From the NCBI GenBank assembly GCA_026770705.1, contig JANJGN010000003.1:74214001-74278000 (forward strand): a stretch of DNA of 64,000 nt, given 5' to 3'. Each line of letters begins with the position of its first letter. The first letter of the stretch is position 1. Positions 5,013-64,000 of the stretch are shown here, one piece after another. The notes beneath the pieces are model-generated. The model ran no database searches. It saw nothing but the letters and a program-made list of their open reading frames with translations, and was not told where the DNA came from. Source of the DNA: Isurus oxyrinchus. Lineage: Eukaryota. The translations under genes and the position numbers were made by a program.

Positions 5013-7550
5013 AATTCCCTAGGTTCTGGAAAGGTTCTGGAAAACTACAAATGTAACACCACTATTCAAGAAAGGAGGGAGACAGAAAACAAGAACTATG
5101 AACAGCATTTTATCCATGGTGCGCCAGTGGAACCGGAAACAGGTGACACTCCCCTTTTGCCAATTCCTATGCAATTCTAATTAAAATTTAAAGTGCTGGT
5201 GGTGGGAATGGGAGGCACGTGTGATCACACGTTGGGAGAAACTTTTCATTGGCAAAACGTGCCATAAGCTGGGCATGGGCAGGCTATAAAAGACAAAGAG
5301 GGAGGCTCTGCATCATGGCCATCATTTTCCTACCAAAAGCCAGCATCCATCTTTTACGATGCCTTCCCTGGATGGCTGCACCCTGACCAGCCTCACTCTC
5401 TGGCACTGCCTGCTGCTGTCATTGCGGTCTCTGTTGTTGACTGGCAAAAGCCTTCCTTTGTTGCATCCTGTCCTCCTGCTCCCAAGGTTTCAGGAATATT
5501 GGATGTATGAGGCCCATAGGTATTCCAGCAATTGAATTGTGTGAAGAAGCCAGAGGGTGAGATGAGAACATGTGTGTCCGTGGATTTCACCCACAGAACT
5601 GATGAACAGTGAGATTTTCAACTCCTTCCATTATCCACAACCAATGCTCCAACCGCTCCACACTGGGCTCCTCCCACTTTGATCTCCAATCCTGGCACCA
5701 CATGTGCTTTTGGTGACATTGCAAACATGATCATTGTAAGGTTTGTGCTAGAACCTGTTACCCTTTACCCTCTTCCTGTCATGTTCATGTTTGTCCCTAT
5801 CACCCTTGATCCTCCCAACATCATGCTGCGCATTCCCTCTATAACCCTTTAACCTCCCACCATTACCGTGGATCCTGTCACCATCCAATTGTAAATGCCA
5901 TCTCTCCCCACTGAGCCTACACCCGCCCCTGTCAACATTCCCCCTCAGATCCTATACCCTTTCTGCTTTGTCCTTCGAGTTTTTGTTAGATCCCGTGACT
6001 CGCCCTATGAGACCTTCAAATATCCAAACCTCAGACTGGACCTCCCTACTAATTTGACTCCCGCCTGTGATGGTGAACATTCCCTCTGAGGGCGAAAACA
6101 GTCTGAGGTGGACACACATGTGGACAGTACTGCCTCCACCCTGTTTGCCCCTCATTTTCTCACCTTGACTGACAGTCTGCATCAACCCCAAGCCCCACAC
6201 ACCCAGGAGCTGCCATTGTCCTGCTCCCATCCCTTGTGCCGCAGAGTTCAACAAAGAAAACTGCTCACCTCAGATACAACTGCACAAAGTCAACTAGTGC
6301 ACACTACCTTTAAGCGCATGTGAACCAGGTGCCACAAGATGCTCGCGCACCGCTGAATTAATCTTGAAGGTAGAGCCTAATCACAAAAGTTTTTAATATA
6401 ATCAGCATTCACAGCATGCAAATCTATTACAAGTAAGAACCCAACAAAGGATGACTTGAGGTCCAGCCCACCAATGCCACACCGCTGACTTAATCTCTGA
6501 ACCCACCTTTGGGAAACAGAAATTTTGGATCCCGCTTAATTAAGCCTATCATGTTTCCTGTTCTTACCGGCCCCAAAAAATTCTACCCCCACAGGCCTGC
6601 AAATCTACCATCTGTCATTGGGAAAATGTTACAATCAATTATTAAGGAGGCAGGTCATTCAGAAAATCAGAATACAATCAGGCAGAGACAAGGGAAATTA
6701 TGTTTGGCAAATTTATTAGAATTCCTTGAGCCTGTCATAACAGGCTGGATAAAAGGGAACCAGAGGATGTGGTATATTTGTATTTCCAAAAGGTATTCCA
6801 TAAGGTGTCACAGGAAGGATTACTGCTCAGGATAAGAGCTCATGGTGTTGGGGGTGATACATTATCATGAATAGAGGTTTGGTTAATTGACAGGAAAGAG
6901 AGAGTTCGGATAAACGGGTCATTTTTGGGTTGGCAAACTGAAGCTAGTGGAGTGCTACAGGGATCAGTCCTGGGGCTTCAAATATTTACAATCTTATTAA
7001 TGACTTGGATGAAGGAACACAACTGTATTGTAACAAAATTTGCTGACCAAACATAGATAGGTAGGAAAGCAAGTTGTGAAGAGGATACAAAAAGTCTGCA
7101 AAGGGATATAGACAGGCTAAATGAGTGTGCAAAAATTTGGCAGGTGGAGGGAACTGTGGGAAAATGAGAAGTTGTCCACTTTGGCAAGGAGAATAGAAAA
7201 GCATAATATTAATTAATTGGAGAGAGGTGACAGAATGCTGCAGTACTGAGGGATTGGGGTATCCTTGAATGTGAATCACAAAATGTTAGCATGTAGGTAT
7301 AGCAATTAGTTAGAGAGGCAAATGGAAGGTTGTCTATTATTGCAAGAAGATTGGAGTATAAAAGTAGGAAAGTCTTGTTACAGCTGTACAAGTTGAGTTA
7401 TACAGATTTTTGATCAACAAGGGAGTTAATGGTTATGGAGGACAGGCAGGAAAGTGGAGCTAGTACCACAATCAGATCAGTCATGATCTTATTCAATGTG
7501 CAGGCTTGGTGGACCAAATGACTCCTATTTCTTATGATCTTTGAATACTT
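5013..7550 (+). mobile_element. CR1 LINE ORF2 (RT) and 3' fragment, split by a Harbinger-type element
   Basis: Decayed CR1 RT motifs: NVTPLFKKGGRQK before 5100, resuming RPANLPSVIGKMLQSIIK after 6590, then GVLQGSVLG and KFAD. CR1-type 3' tail near 7500-7550. Confidence 0.85.
5100..6589. mobile_element. Non-autonomous Harbinger-type DNA transposon (about 1.5 kb) carrying a cryptic Pro-rich ORF remnant
   Basis: TIR-like ends GAACAGCATTTT and AAAATTCTACCC(C). Interrupts the CR1 RT at AACTAC|AGGCC with a degenerate 3-bp TSD (TAT/CAC). Confidence 0.7.
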
Positions 7551-42425: not shown

Positions 42426-44578
42426 GACCAGAATTTTGCATTCCGCGTGTGGGGGTGGACCCAACATGCCGGAACATAAAATGACGCGCGATGATGTCGG
42501 GTGTGTGTCCCAATGTTACTAGTCTCCATTGCAATATTTCGGAAGGCGGGCACAATGAGGACAGAGGCACACCCACCATTAATCAACGGGCCAGTTAAGG
42601 CCCTTGAGGCACCAATTGAAATCGATTTTGTGCAGCTCATGCGATTTTCAGGGCATCGCACGGGCGCAACAGGCAGGTGGGTAGGCCACATTTTTAAAAA
42701 CCTCATCCACGGGTGGGATAAGAGGGGTGAGTGATCTCGCTAATGCGAGTTGTTAGAACTTCAGATTATAACTTACCGCTACTTGTTTGTGTGAACAGGA
42801 CAACTTCATTTTGCTTCAGAGCTGCTTTGATAGAAATAACAGGTTTCACTTCAGGACTCTGGAGGAATCATAACACACGGAACCTTCCAGATATGAGACA
42901 GCCTTCCCTTTTCCTGGGAATGGGGATTGTGGTCTCCGTTGGAGGCACTTCCTCTGAGGAGGAAGAGAGGGCCAGAAGGGGGAGGAGGCTAAGTATCCCT
43001 ATTCAGCCTCCAGGGGAGCAATCTGTGGGAGGAGAGATGTAGGCACAAGGGGTGTAGGGCCAACAGGAAGTCCAAGGCAGAAGGAGCCACAGAAGATGCC
43101 ACTATCTTGCTGCCAGGGTTTACAGGCGGCGATGCAGCTACCTCAATATGTCTGAGATGCAATGCCGAAGGAGGCTCCACCTCTCATGGGGGACGGTGAC
43201 CTCCATCTGTCAGATGATCGGCCCTGAAATCAGCTCCAACTGCGTAGGTGGACACCCTATACCAGTGGTGCTGAGGGGCACAGTGGCCCTCAACTTATAT
43301 GCCTCCGGCTCTTTCCAGGAGTCGGTAGGTGATCTTTGTGGAGTCTCCCAATCAGCTGTTCACAGCTGTGTCAAGCTGGTGACAGATGCTCTGTTCAGGT
43401 GTGCATTGGCTTCATTCACTACCATACGGATGAGGCCAGCCAGGCTGAGCAAGCCAGAGGCTTTGCAGCAATTGCTGGGTTCCCCTGTATCAAGGGTGCA
43501 ATTGGCTACATGTGGCCATCAAGGCATCAGCAAGTGAGCCGGGAGCCTTCATCAACAGGAAGGGATTCCACTCCATGAACATGCAGATGGTGTGTGACCA
43601 TAGGATACAGATTCTGCAAGTTTGTGCAAGGTACCCAGGCAGTTCCCATGACACTGACATCCTGAGACACTCCCAGGTGCCGAGGGTCTTCAGTGCTCCA
43701 GCCCAGCTGTGGATGGATAGCTGCTGGGTGACAAGGGCTATCCACTCAAAAGGTGGCTCATGACGCCTCTCTGCCATCCAAGACAGAGGCCGAGCAGAAG
43801 TACAACAGGAGCCATGCCTCCACAAAGGCAGTGGTACAGAGAACTTTAGGTCTTCCTCAAGATGCGCTTCTGATGCCTGGACCATTCAGGGTGCACACTG
43901 CAATACCCCCCAGGTGCTGCACTCTCCACAATCTGGAGCTGGAAAGGGGGGACACAGTGGAGGAAGAAGATGTTGACACAGCAGCTCTGGCAGTAGACGA
44001 TAAGTCCAGTAGTGAATCCGAGGACAAGCACAGTAGGAGTACGCTGAGGGGATAGACACTGACCTGGACAACCTCAAGGAAGGCAGGAGCATCCGGGAGG
44101 CTTTGAATCAACACTCCTTCAGCTAGCCTACCAAAGATTAACCATCACCACATGCCAGGGCTGCAGGCTCCATACTCGATACCTGAGAGGAAAATTTGCT
44201 TGGTGAACAAAATGCACTGTGTGCCATCTCAGTAAAGCTTAATACAAACAAGTCACTCGTAACATCATAGGTTACCCTTCATCTCCAGAACTAATGAAGC
44301 ATTGCTTCGGTACTGCAAAGTCAATGGCAGCCTTCACACGGCTGCCTGTGCCCTTTTTGAATAGGCCGCTGGGTCGCCATTGGACCTGGTGGACATTGAG
44401 TTTCCACCCCAGCCCGCCCCTTCACGCTGATGCTGGAGCCGCACATTATGCTGGGTGGGCCTTTATTGGCCCACCTGCGTAAACTGGCTGTGTGCACCCA
44501 ATCGCGGGCAGCAGTTGGTTTCCCGACCATCCCCACCCGCTTCCGCCGAGCCTGCCGGATGCAGGAAAATTTCAGGCC
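42426..44578 (+). mobile_element. PIF/Harbinger DNA transposon with decayed transposase
   Basis: TIRs GACCAGAATTTT / AAAATTTCAGGCC. TSD TAG at 42423-42425 and 44579-44581. The first 300 bp and last 200 bp or so are homologous to the MITEs in this window. Confidence 0.92.
42920..44126 (+). pseudogene. Harbinger (HARBI1-like, DDE_Tnp_4) transposase pseudogene
   Basis: Frameshifted segments YLNMSEMQCRRRLHLS, VALNLYASGSFQESVGDLCGVSQSAVHSC, FAAIAGFPCIKGAIG, FINRKGFHSMNMQMVCDH..VCARYPGSSHDTDILRHS, LLGDKGYPL, EQKYNRSHASTKAVVQRTLG and CCTLHN. Confidence 0.92.
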
Positions 44579-50100: not shown

Positions 50101-50502
50101 CCAAACCCCTTCACCCCCATCCCACACCACCCCCACCCCTGCCCCAGCAACCAAATAGCTCTAAAATGATTACAGGGACTTACTATTTTTCAAGCAGATA
50201 TTCAACCGAGAGCACACTCCTGCCATTACCACGCTACAGCTGCTGCTGCTCACCTTTGAGCAGCTTTTTGGTTTTCTGGTGGGCTTCGCAAAAACAATCG
50301 GAACCACGAAACTGCCGAATGTCGAATGTGTCAGCAGTTCCTACTCACAGCTCCTGTCAGTGAAACCGACCTGACTGAGTGATTTTTAAAAATCGGAACT
50401 GTCAGGCTGACAGTTCTGAATTTCTTTTTAAGACAGTCTTTCAGGCCTGCTGCTCACTTTGGACCCTGTTCACAATACTGAGCTTGGGCGTTCCTAAACC
50501 CC

Positions 50503-53015
50503 CCAGGACCCGTTGTTAGGCACTGTCTGCACTCCCATTACGGACCCCAGTGTTTGGCACTACCTTCACCCCCAACACGGACCCCAGCACTTGGCACTGT
50601 CTGCACCCCATTCTGCACGCCGGTGTTTGGAACTGACTGCATCCCCTCCTCTCCCAGACCCCAGTGTTTGGCACTGTCCGCACCCCCTCCTGGACCACAG
50701 TGTTTGGCACTGTCCGCACCCACATTCCGGACCCAGAGTGTGGAACTATCTGCACCCCCTCCCAGACCCCGGTGTTTAGCACTGTCTGTATCCCCTCCCA
50801 GAAGCTGGTGTTTGGAACTATCTGCACCCCCATTCCGGACCCCACGTTTAGCACTGTCTACACCCCCATTCCGGACCCCATATTTAGCACTGTCTGCATC
50901 CCCTCCTGTACCCCGGTGTTTGGAACTATCTGCACCCCCATTCCGGACCCGTTGTTTAGCACTGTCTGCACCCCCTCCCCGACGCCTGCGTTTAGCACTG
51001 TCTGCGCCCTTCCCGGATCCCAGTGTTTAGCACTGTTTGCACTCCCTCCTGGACCCCAGCGTTTAGCATTGTCCATACCCCCATTCCGGACCCCGCTGTT
51101 AGGCACTGTCTGCAACCCCTCCTCTCCCAGACCCCGGTTTTAGCACAGTCTGTATCCTGTCCCAGATCCCGGTGTTTAGCACTGCCTGCATCCCCTCCTG
51201 GAGCCTGGTGTTTGGCACTGTCTGCACCCCCATTCCAGACCCCGGTATTTAGCATTGCCTGCACCCCCATTCTGGACCTGGTGTTTGGCATTGTCTGCAC
51301 TCTCATTCCGGATCACGGTGTTTAGCATTGTCTGCACCCCCATTCTGGACCTGGTGTTTGGCATTGTCTGCACTCCCATTCCGGACCTCGGTGTTTAGCA
51401 TTGTCTGCACCCCCATTCCGGACCTGGTGTTTGGCATTGTCTGCACTCCCATTCCGGACCTCGGTGTTTAGCATTGTCTGCACCCCCATTCTGGACCTGG
51501 TGTTTGACACTGTCTGCACCCCAGTGTTTGGCATTGACTGCACACCCATTGGGGACCTTAGTGTGAGGCACTGTCTGTACCCTGGCGTTTGGCACTGACT
51601 GCACACCCATTGGGGACCTGAGTGTGAGGCACTGTCTGCACCCCCTCCTGGACCCCAGTGTTAGGCACCATCTGCACTCCCATTACGGACCCCAGTGTTT
51701 GGCACTACCTGCACCCCCAACATGGACCCCAGCGCTTGGCACTGTCTGCACCCCATTCCGCACGCCAGTGATTGGAACTGACTGCATCCCCTCCTCTCCC
51801 AGTCCCCAGCGTTTGGCACTGTCCGCACCCCCTCCTGGACCACAGTGTTTGGCACTGTCCGCACCCGCATTCCGGACCCAGAGTGTGGAACTATCTGCAC
51901 TCCCTCCCAGACCCCAGTGTTTATCCCCTCCCAGAAGCTGGTGTTTGGAACTATCTGCACCCCCATTCCGGACCCCACATTTAGCACTGTTGCACCCTCT
52001 CCTGGATCCTGGTGTTCAGCACTGTCGGCATTCCCTCCCGTACCCAAGTGTTTGGCACTGCTTGCACCCCCTCCTGGACACCAGTGTTTGGAGCTATCTG
52101 CACCCCCATTCCGGACCTGTTGTTTAGCACTGTCTGCACACCCACTGGGGACCTGAGTGTGAGGCACTGTCTGCACCCCTGGTGTTTAGCACTGTCTGCA
52201 CCCCCTCCTGGACCCCAGTGTTTAGCATTGTCCACACCCCCATTCCGGACCCCGGTGTTTGGCGTTGTCTGCACCCCTATTCCGGACCCGGCATTTAGAA
52301 CTGTCTACACCCCCTCCCAGATCCCGGTATTTGGAACTACCCAGACCCAGTGTTTGGCACTGACTGCACCCCATTGTGGACCTCAGTGTTAGGCACTGAC
52401 TGCACCCCTCCTGGACCCCGGTGTTTGGCAGTGACTGCACCCTCATTGGGGACCTCAGTGTTTGGAACTTTCTGCACCTGCATTGGGGACCTCAGTGTTA
52501 GGCACCCCCTCCCGGACCCCGGTGTTTAGCACAGTCTGCATCCCATCCCAGATCTCTGTGTTTAGTACTGCCTGCATCCCCTCCTGGACCCTGGTGTTTG
52601 GCACTGTCTGCACCCCCATTCTAGACCCCAGTGTTTGGCACTGTCTGCACCCCCATTCTGGACCTGGTGTTTGGCACTGTCCGCACCCCCATTCTGGACC
52701 CTGGTGTTTAGCATTGTCTGCACCCGCATTCTGGACCTGGTGTTTGGCACTGTTTGCACCCCGGCGTTTGGCACTGACTGTACACCAATTGGGGACCTGA
52801 GTGTTAGGCACCGTCTGCACCCACTCCCTGACCCCAGTGTTAGGCACTATCTGCACCTGCTCCCAGATCCCGGTGTTTAGCACTGTCTGCCTCCTCCTCC
52901 TGGACCCCAGTGTTTGGCACTATCTGCACCCCCTCCCAGACCCCAATTTTTGGCACTGTCTGTACCCCCTCCTCTCCCGGAGTTTGGCACTGTCTGCCTC
53001 TCTCCCAGACCCTGG
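50503..53015. repeat. GC-rich minisatellite, 35-37 bp unit, roughly 70 copies, with higher-order duplication
   Basis: Consensus approximately GTGTTTGGCACTGTCTGCACCCCCATTCCGGACCCCG, repeated head-to-tail with no spacers. Confidence 0.95.
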
Positions 53016-62240: not shown

Positions 62241-64000
62241 GGGTGGAATTTTCCATTCTGGAGACTAAGGGCGGGATTTTCCGCACCTGCCCGCTGCCGG
62301 GATCTTCCGGTCCCACCACAAGTCAATGGACTCCCAGCTGGGGCGCCGTCTCGCCCACAGCTGGTCCCGCCCGTGATGGGGCCAGAAAATCCCAGCCTAA
62401 GTGCAGTGGCAGGCAGGAAAGTCACCGTGTTTCCTGCTGGGAGGCGGGGCAGGAAAACACACGTGATCTTCCGCTTTTCAATCAATAATTATGCATGAGC
62501 GAGAAGCTTGGAAAATCTTGTGGCAGTGTGGCCAGGAAGTCACCTGCCAGGAAGTTACCTAGTGGGGTCAAAGGCTTTGGTACCATATTTAAAGGGCATG
62601 GGGACATTCACTCATTACAGGCCAAGAGTTTCAGGTTACTCCTATGAAGTCCTTATGGCCACAACTCATTTTGAAGAAGTTTGCAAATATAGGCAACCGT
62701 ATCCTGGGACATACAAGGGTGTCTCCAGCATTGCCTTCGGCCCATCTCTAGACAAGAGCACAGCTGGCGAAACACCCATGGTCGGTCCAATGCTTGTCAT
62801 TGCAGTTGTCCATGTTTGCCAGCATCTTGACTTTATAGAGGCCCTGCTGCCTCTTGCTGCTCAGGCCCTTGCTCCTTACAGCCCCGAGCCAACCAGTGAT
62901 GGGCCCTCCTTCTCCTCATCTGCATGAGAGACATTATCAAGGCAGGAGTGCCTGCAGCCTGTATCATCGACACCTCAGTTAATGTGTGAATGAATTGAAG
63001 TGATGCATTTTGTGAGTTTGTCCTTTACAGGTTCCCTCCATCTCAAAGTCAGCAGGCCAGTGCTAAGTCCTTCACCTGGCTTCTATCTACGCGTGGCATC
63101 CCCACATCACCCTTAAAGAGTGTTAAAGTGTATTCTGGAGGACCAGAGATGGCTATTTGCCCCATTCATACATGAATGTGTATGGAGACGTTAATTTTGA
63201 CCAAAGTGATAAGAGCCGAATTGGCTGCTCTCCACCAGCTGTGCCCCTTGGAGGCATCCACCTCCCGCCCTCCCTTTATCCCTGCCTCTGACTGCAGCTG
63301 ATGGCAAATGGCACAGAATGAACGGCAGCTCCACACCTTGCTGGGATGTGGATATTATGAGACACATGAGTCAGGACCAAGCCTGCTGCAGTGCGGGCTT
63401 CACCACAAAGTGAAGATCACAACTGAGTATTGTTGTCATCCAGTTTCCTCGTGATTGTGTCATCCTTTAGTCAGCTAATTGTGCTGACCTTGAAATCCAC
63501 TCACCCGAAAAGACTCCCCTCCCACTTCCAGGCATTGCAGTTTTACATCAAATGGAAAGATGATGCCCGTAACTTTCCAGACACGCTCCACCACCTTCTA
63601 CCTTTTCCATGTCACCCACCAACTTCCACCCATTACCATAGACCCACCTAATATCATCTTTCATCTCCCTTCTGTCATCCCTGACCCTCCCCTCATCATC
63701 CTGGACCCTATAACCATTCACCTCCACATGCATGTCCTCCCCTCAGAGCAGACACCCATTACTATACCCATCTTTATACCAATCCTGATCCTGCCCCTCC
63801 CGTTATCCGAACCACCTGACTTGTTCCCCACCTGATGATATCTTCATCTGCCAGAATCACACCCTGAACCTGCCATATTAACGCAGCCCACTTCCCCTTT
63901 TCACTGTGACTATTCCCTCTTACCACCAGTACCCTGAGTTCACCACCCCAGGACCCCACCATTAACTCCATTGGCTCTGCCCTCAAAGACACTCTCCCTT
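62241..64000. mobile_element. Harbinger-type element (right end outside window) with a Pro-rich ORF remnant
   Basis: Two TIR-like starts, GGGTGGAATTTT (62241) and GGGCGGGATTTT (62268). ORF 63560-63835 is homologous at protein level to 5750-5950 inside the element at 5100-6589. Confidence 0.55.

Follow-up and report, generated by a model that had tools for sequence, protein, structure and literature searches.

Two Harbinger-type elements with a shared reading frame

The window, i.e., the whole 64,000-nt stretch of DNA analyzed here (contig positions 74214001 to 74278000; searched genome, 4.98 Gb), contains two related non-autonomous Harbinger elements, A and B, each of which carries a proline-rich heptad-repeat reading frame (Table 1). 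Both elements retain only the 5' end of the transposase, on the minus strand. The inverted repeats of element A (GGGYGGRATTTTCC) are flanked by CTT on either side. The left limit given for element B is the edge of the consensus alignment, and the element may extend a little beyond it. The preliminary description of the two hosts as Harbinger type is borne out by their terminal inverted repeats, a 3-bp duplication, and the minus-strand transposase 5' remnants.

Table 1 Positions of elements A and B and of their parts (window coordinates)
Feature	Position	Strand	Remarks
Non-autonomous Harbinger element, subfamily A (element A)	62241..64000, onward to contig 74278497 (window-equivalent 64497)		2.26 kb
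Left terminal inverted repeat of element A	62241..62254	+	
MITE (short inverted-repeat element) within element A	62269..62397		TAA on both flanks
Harbinger transposase 5' remnant, element A	62656..62967	-	~104 codons; remainder deleted here
Conserved C-rich box (CCACCC...CTCCTCCCACTT type)	63499..63527	+	30 to 60 nt before the ATG of the frame
Proline-rich heptad-repeat frame, subfamily A copy	63560..63987	+	143 codons in consensus
Non-autonomous Harbinger element, subfamily B (element B)	5174..6590		~1.4 kb, related to element A
Transposase 5' remnant, element B	5340..5517	-	ATG at 5517
Predicted 5'-UTR intron of transposase gene, element B	5536..6267	-	Frame enclosed on opposite strand
Proline-rich heptad-repeat frame, subfamily B copy	5727..6147	+	140 codons in consensus; stops and frameshifts here

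The preliminary description had aligned positions 63629 to 63757 with positions 5796 to 5924. The translations of both segments are as written there, and 24 of 43 residues are identical without gaps. At the DNA level, the identical sites number 31, 35, and 18 of 43 for the three codon positions, and codons 1 to 9 differ by six synonymous changes and one Ile/Leu change, as claimed. A profile of two subfamily proteins matched the window at these two places only. The span originally proposed for the A copy (63560 to 63835) starts at the true ATG but ends at a frameshift stop private to this copy. The A copy is frameshifted after ~codon 76 and its stop codon is mutated; the ancestral frame can be followed to position 63987 through two insertions (6 nt and 1 nt) and two deletions (1 nt and 10 nt). 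Relative to the consensuses of their subfamilies, 357 of 421 (A copy) and 357 of 418 (B copy) aligned bases are identical. The window segments at 63.6 kb and 5.8 kb are decayed copies of one complete frame of 140 to 147 codons.

The MITE just inside the left end of element A has Harbinger-like ends, and sequence resembling it was common in contigs of putative RNA runs. Elsewhere in the window, a decayed full-length Harbinger transposase (42850 to 43950, plus strand; PF13359, E = 1.2e-9) groups with an abundant two-gene family, and positions 50500 to 53010 are occupied by a minisatellite whose 36-nt unit is repeated ~70 times and which also shows higher-order periods (73 and 109 nt).

Subfamilies and consensus proteins

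The frame is carried by at least five Harbinger subfamilies (A to E), which were defined from a tree of 122 copies and two further searches. At least 178 distinct copies were found (71, 34, 30, 12, and 31 per subfamily); these counts are lower bounds because only top candidates were scored. Copies are 81 to 84% identical to their own consensus. None is intact, and the 147 copies that were aligned contain ~4 frameshifts each. The consensuses, by comparison, restore a single frame of 140 to 147 codons, which in all five subfamilies begins with an ATG in a strong context (purine at -3 and G at +4) and ends at the same stop. Four of the five consensuses are stop-free, and that of subfamily C contains one TGA at a mixed site (TGA, 4; AGA, 3; CGA, 1; CAG, 1; 9 copies matched). 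The consensus proteins are 54 to 81% identical in pairs, with 63 of 147 columns invariant.

The 7-residue period recognized at the outset extends through the entire protein, which consists of ~20 heptads in register (hydrophobic-T-hydrophobic-D-x-P-x). Among 85 heptad units, 68 have V, I, or L at position 1, 52 have T at position 2, 75 have L, F, V, or I at position 3, 47 have D or E at position 4, and 59 have P at position 6. The consensus proteins contain no Lys, Gly, or Trp and are acidic (net charge, -6 to -17).

Two loci were unusual in their arrangement. A second copy of the frame lies 4 kb from the first at L041:8823-9167, and at L150:6635-7073 the frame and the neighboring transposase are on the same strand, unlike at every other long locus; the latter is perhaps an inversion or a pair of adjacent elements.

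Full-length relatives

Longer copies encode a DDE_Tnp_4 transposase (PF13359), which is complete in subfamily A copy L151 (E = 2.9e-28) and was also detected in L145 (subfamily B; E = 7.2e-21) and L245 (subfamily C; E = 1.6e-10). We analyzed 50 ten-kb loci, selected for the frame or the transposase and not random. Six of these (L245, L248, L249, L255, L258, and L259) contain a Myb exon (detected by tblastn), the transposase, and the proline-rich frame in one layout: the Myb and transposase genes are convergent, and the frame lies upstream of and opposite to the transposase. The Myb domain (PF13873) was identified by Pfam in L245 (E = 1.8e-7), and three other decayed copies gave E = 0.068, E = 0.093, and no match. 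Most subfamily B copies with a whole transposase have no Myb exon in the loci examined. Because some full copies carry Myb, transposase, and frame together, the frame is not the Myb gene; the Myb gene is separate, at the opposite end of the same elements. An exact 3-bp target duplication was present in 5 of the 12 subfamily A copies with both ends (CTT, TAT, GCA, TTG, and CAA). None of these is TWA, and the flanks are merely AT biased in these few, old copies.

Transposases without the frame also exist. In the abundant two-gene family, no frame was found within 1.5 kb of the domain at any of the 30 best PF13359 loci, and L260, a close relative, encodes a transposase without the frame. The frame is therefore not needed for Harbinger transposition in general. 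L260 (contig C31, ~20.845 Mb) has a fully open 443-codon transposase on a short branch, with a 16-nt minisatellite upstream, and is possibly a domesticated or very young copy. It lies ~0.9 kb head-to-head from a host coding exon that may be NOP53/GLTSCR2-like. A search of the genome with PF13359 gave 73,234 first-look candidates, and all 150 that were scored were above the cutoff. In the parts of two surveys that concern sharks, no Harbingers are reported in the shark genomes examined there (PMC4482050; PMC9179366); if the present genome is that of a shark, it contains a very large Harbinger expansion.

Selection on the frame

A codon model applied to the five consensuses gave an omega (dN/dS) of 0.45 (2dlnL = 28.4 versus omega = 1). 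For the remaining five frames, omega was 1.3, 2.8, 1.4, 0.52, and 2.8; each consensus has 3 to 14 stops in four of these frames and 0 to 3 in the in-register antisense frame. As a neutral control, dead copies were compared with their own consensus, giving an omega of 0.96 over 19,938 codons. By subfamily, the values were 0.96 to 1.16, except for subfamily A (0.77), which is consequently not a clean neutral star. The frame has thus been under purifying selection between subfamilies and has decayed neutrally within four of them.

The reduction in omega was reproduced in several ways. Pooled, non-independent consensus pairs gave 0.41 to 0.51 under three frequency models, and the two halves of the frame gave 0.41 and 0.48 separately. 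As a positive control, the 5' part of the transposase gave 0.375, versus 0.53 for the frame in the same four subfamilies. Both internal gaps between consensuses within the frame are multiples of 3 (0 of 2 break the frame), compared with 15 frame-breaking gaps of 20 downstream and 3 of 5 upstream; the D consensus cannot show indels relative to C because it was built on the C frame. When repeat units were compared with each other, the second codon position was the most conserved (permutation P = 0.00085).

Other observations weigh against a coding function, among them the TGA in the C consensus and the lack of a canonical poly(A) signal after the stop. The stop-free state alone is not significant on a C-rich strand, as neutral simulation gave no more than 1 stop in 11% of runs (P = 0.11), nor is the B-D pair alone (omega, 0.64; 2dlnL = 1.7). 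The reduction in omega is moderate, and kappa is oddly low (near 0.8). Simulated neutral evolution left a mean of 31 invariant residues versus the 63 observed; this comparison was set aside because the simulation lacked rate variation among sites. That the frame was a translated gene appears highly probable. The preliminary description had inferred that purifying selection acted on an additional gene or domain during the active life of the elements. This is supported, as none of the four contrary outcomes named there was found: dN/dS is well below 1, four of the five consensuses are free of stops, the wobble-sharing antisense frame is the less conserved one, and the Myb gene is separate.

Position of the frame within the element

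The consensuses of subfamilies B, C, D, and E contain a TATA-like box near the element end, a donor motif ~46 nt further on, and an acceptor motif that precedes the transposase ATG by 18 nt. The whole frame is enclosed by the donor and acceptor motifs, in antisense, between the TATA-like box and the ATG of the transposase. In element B, these motifs correspond to a TATA-like box at 6307 to 6314, a donor near 6267, and an acceptor near 5537 that is mutated in this copy. No clear donor or acceptor motifs were present at the homologous places in subfamily A. Judged by predicted splicing, the frame likely lies backwards inside a 5' intron of the transposase gene. In contigs of four putative RNA runs, which contain other diverged copies and show neither strand nor start, none of the joints displayed coincides with the predicted intron; no transcript or protein of the frame was found. 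The C-rich box upstream of the ATG of the frame is common to all five consensuses and may be a promoter of the frame or, alternatively, an intronic element of the transposase gene. The consensuses have no TATA box at the frame and no AATAAA after its stop, where only variant hexamers occur.

In a transposase tree of decayed single copies with long branches, in which 34 of 34 loci were placed, subfamily E falls within B and C, whereas A stands apart. By the frame, in contrast, E is nearest to A (111 of 143 residues identical versus 81 to 95 for the others). This discordance suggests that the subfamilies may have exchanged the frame as a module by recombination. L260 branches between A and B-E and has, at the place of the frame, its 16-nt minisatellite, which shares the same CTTGACCC core. 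This minisatellite is a lead toward a tandem-repeat origin of the frame or else a sign of its loss.

Homolog searches and predicted fold

The frame matched no Pfam family in any of the 12 members scanned. Searches of a 5.8-billion protein set, with a single protein and two profiles and at near and longer lengths, returned no homolog, and the ESM Atlas gave no usable match. Viral and metagenome contigs queried with the window's own frame, a search that detects close relatives only, yielded nothing. The best PDB sequence match, vinculin (E = 0.18), was rejected as chance. In a 1.84-billion protein set, there were 11 matches, i.e., ten perfect or near-perfect heptad repeats and one unrelated longer repeat; these were rejected as homologs, as the resemblance is in periodicity only. 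Nine of the ten matches looked up were single-member clusters, and none was named beyond "hypothetical protein." The unnamed proteins P0001 to P0005 and P0007 to P0011 consist of near-perfect heptads of the type seen in the N-terminal half of the present protein; they probably represent translated 21-nt minisatellites or else the antisense strands of genes for coiled coils.

AlphaFold, run on natural copies, produced an all-beta model (pLDDT, 77; pTM, 0.53; other four models, pLDDT 52 to 61), and a second run led by another subfamily reached a pLDDT of 59. The models were judged by secondary structure and not by coordinates. In the first, the ends of the strands mirror each other around residues 29-30 and 92-93; the register of the second hairpin recurs in the second run. 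We read the predicted fold as two long antiparallel hairpins, proline-kinked every seven residues, rather than as a solenoid. The beta-solenoid originally guessed at would thus be correct in being all beta, but the strand registers appear to fit two hairpins better. Foldseek returned no match at E = 0.001 (PDB and BFVD), and the best VIA Z score was 2.9, which does not by itself make the fold new. If the models are right, the protein may represent a new beta-repeat architecture.

The protein lacks catalytic residues and a basic patch, and its hydrophobic pattern recurs on one side, for which reason a binding scaffold or adaptor that assisted transposition or opposed silencing is the likeliest role; given a translated gene, we would put this role at a little short of an even chance. 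The element would then carry an additional gene, as the preliminary description suggested, but a whole small gene and not a domain, and the sense of "cargo" as a captured host gene is unsupported because no homolog was found.

Proposed explanation and alternatives

On balance, we favor the explanation that the frame is a third frame of a Harbinger clade, selected at the protein level while the elements were active and probably encoding a non-enzymatic, rod-like beta-repeat helper of transposition that would have acted by binding partners. The transposase mRNA would splice out the region holding the frame, and the frame itself would be expressed from an internal promoter of its own, located at the conserved C-rich box. 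Its product, acidic and free of lysine, would fold as two long proline-kinked beta-hairpins; the partner of this scaffold or adaptor may have been the Myb-transposase complex or, alternatively, a host silencing or repair factor. A more specific version, which is tentative and may well be wrong, is that an animal Harbinger lineage derived a new gene from a 21-nt minisatellite on the opposite strand of a transposase intron, that the module was swapped between subfamilies, and that the product, a proline-kinked double beta-hairpin rod of a kind not described before, was a third factor in transposition or counter-silencing.

The constraint might instead act on DNA or RNA, the region being a decayed 21-nt minisatellite in a transposase intron whose open frame is a by-product of the C-rich strand. 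Possible features would include two helical turns, G-runs that aid splicing, or direct-repeat half-sites of the nuclear-receptor kind. The P value of 0.11 for the stop-free state is compatible with this, as is the DNA identity of the frame (0.68 to 0.86), which is not above that of parts of the flanking intron and is below that of the transposase (0.78 to 0.92). Frame-less L260, with its CTTGACCC-core minisatellite at the same place, and database matches that are at best pure heptad repeats in singleton unnamed proteins point the same way. An omega of 0.45 against the neutral 0.96, however, is evidence of selection on codons, as are the three-base periodicity of conservation between units, the in-frame state of all gaps, and the start and stop common to five subfamilies. 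The nuclear-receptor-site reading was dropped, since just 13 of 85 units keep the half-site and its Leu codon varies synonymously (CTT, 14; CTG, 12; CTC, 8; CTA, 3; TTG, 2). We consider selection on DNA or RNA unlikely. The reverse-strand alternative, in which the transposase strand bears the true coding frame and the proline-rich frame merely shadows it, is largely refuted and hardly credible. The wobble-sharing antisense frame has an omega of 0.52, and the in-register frame, with its few stops, reads as Gly/Arg-rich heptads. The former, however, has 3 to 5 stops in every consensus and, against the possibility raised in advance, is less conserved than the proline-rich frame (56 versus 63 invariant residues), and the latter has an omega of 1.4 and 47 versus 63 invariant residues; both lie between the conserved donor and acceptor motifs.

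Two further alternatives accept a protein and differ in how it was expressed or what it did. The frame could be the terminal exon of a transcript that begins at the Myb promoter and is spliced across the antisense transposase gene. It is on the same strand as the Myb gene, pyrimidine tracts ending in AG occur shortly before the ATG in every consensus, and the frame lacks a TATA box and a canonical poly(A) signal behind it. The candidate acceptors differ in phase, however, and 3 of 5 upstream gaps are frame-breaking, so that no in-frame fusion is conserved; moreover, each subfamily has its own ATG in a strong context, and the Myb exon is missing from the loci of most subfamily B copies with a whole transposase. 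We regard such an exon as quite unlikely. The protein could also be an adaptor through which the element recruits machinery of the host, either that of ubiquitin or that of membrane budding; the destruction of a repressor or the export of the element would be examples of its use. Leu-Pro-x-Tyr and Tyr-Pro-x-Leu are WW-domain and ALIX ligands; the former occurs in 5 of 5 consensuses and the latter in 4 of 5, no more than 11 residues apart, in a protein devoid of lysine. Against this, the heptad register plus a Tyr yields both motifs almost automatically, the models place both in strands, and a PTAP/PSAP motif is absent, which makes a role of this kind very improbable.

Comparison with known systems

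Most likely, a clade of Harbinger elements had a third gene that has not been described before and that is dead in every copy examined; its protein belongs to no known family. Full-text searches of openly accessible papers listed no description of such a frame, and a Repbase entry for it may exist. Two proteins define the Harbinger elements, and a third, selected antisense gene would add a component to the biology of vertebrate DNA transposons and would allow the birth of a gene from a tandem repeat within a mobile element to be traced. Since cultured cells can be used to reconstitute Harbinger transposition, the role of an accessory protein is directly testable.

PIF/Harbinger elements are described in the relevant parts of two studies as having two open reading frames (Han et al. 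2015, PMC4482050; Etchegaray et al. 2022, PMC9179366). The present elements resemble these canonical elements in their DDE_Tnp_4 transposase, Myb/SANT gene, short inverted repeats starting with GGG, and 3-bp duplication. Unlike the elements outlined by Han et al. (2015), they carry a frame antisense to the 5' region of the transposase, and TWA is not a requirement of their duplications. Extra genes are known in the Harbinger lineages of rust fungi (PHISTA, carrying TET/JBP) and oomycetes (HarbingerS, carrying SET), and the sections of the paper concerned cite the VANDAL anti-silencing proteins of MuDR as a parallel (Kojima 2025, PMC12730594). These lineages likewise combine a Harbinger-superfamily element with an additional protein gene. 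Their extra genes, as described there, encode recognizable enzymes, whereas the present frame has no enzyme domain or detected homolog and is nested, in antisense, within the transposase region; its host is an animal element in which the Myb gene is retained.

For the repeat itself, AHNAK and periaxin offer an analogy only, and no AHNAK-like match to the proline-rich protein was found in Pfam, the PDB, or the large protein sets. AHNAK has a heptad register that is hydrophobic at positions 1 and 3 with proline at position 6, has been modeled as beta-strands, and is a non-enzymatic scaffold, so that the seven-residue register is the point of likeness. It is also a giant, Lys- and Gly-rich protein with a PDZ domain, unlike the present protein of ~143 residues, which has no Lys, Gly, or PDZ domain. 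The central repeats of AHNAK and periaxin are given in one account as 128-residue units (PMC10682155).

The closest layout is that of LINE-1 ORF0, a small antisense open reading frame in the 5' region of a mobile element; in the passages of a review that treat it, ORF0 has an internal antisense promoter, and its overexpression is reported to raise mobility (PMC11485995). LINE-1 is a retrotransposon and ORF0 is presumably unrelated in sequence, whereas the present frame encodes a repeat protein in a DNA transposon.
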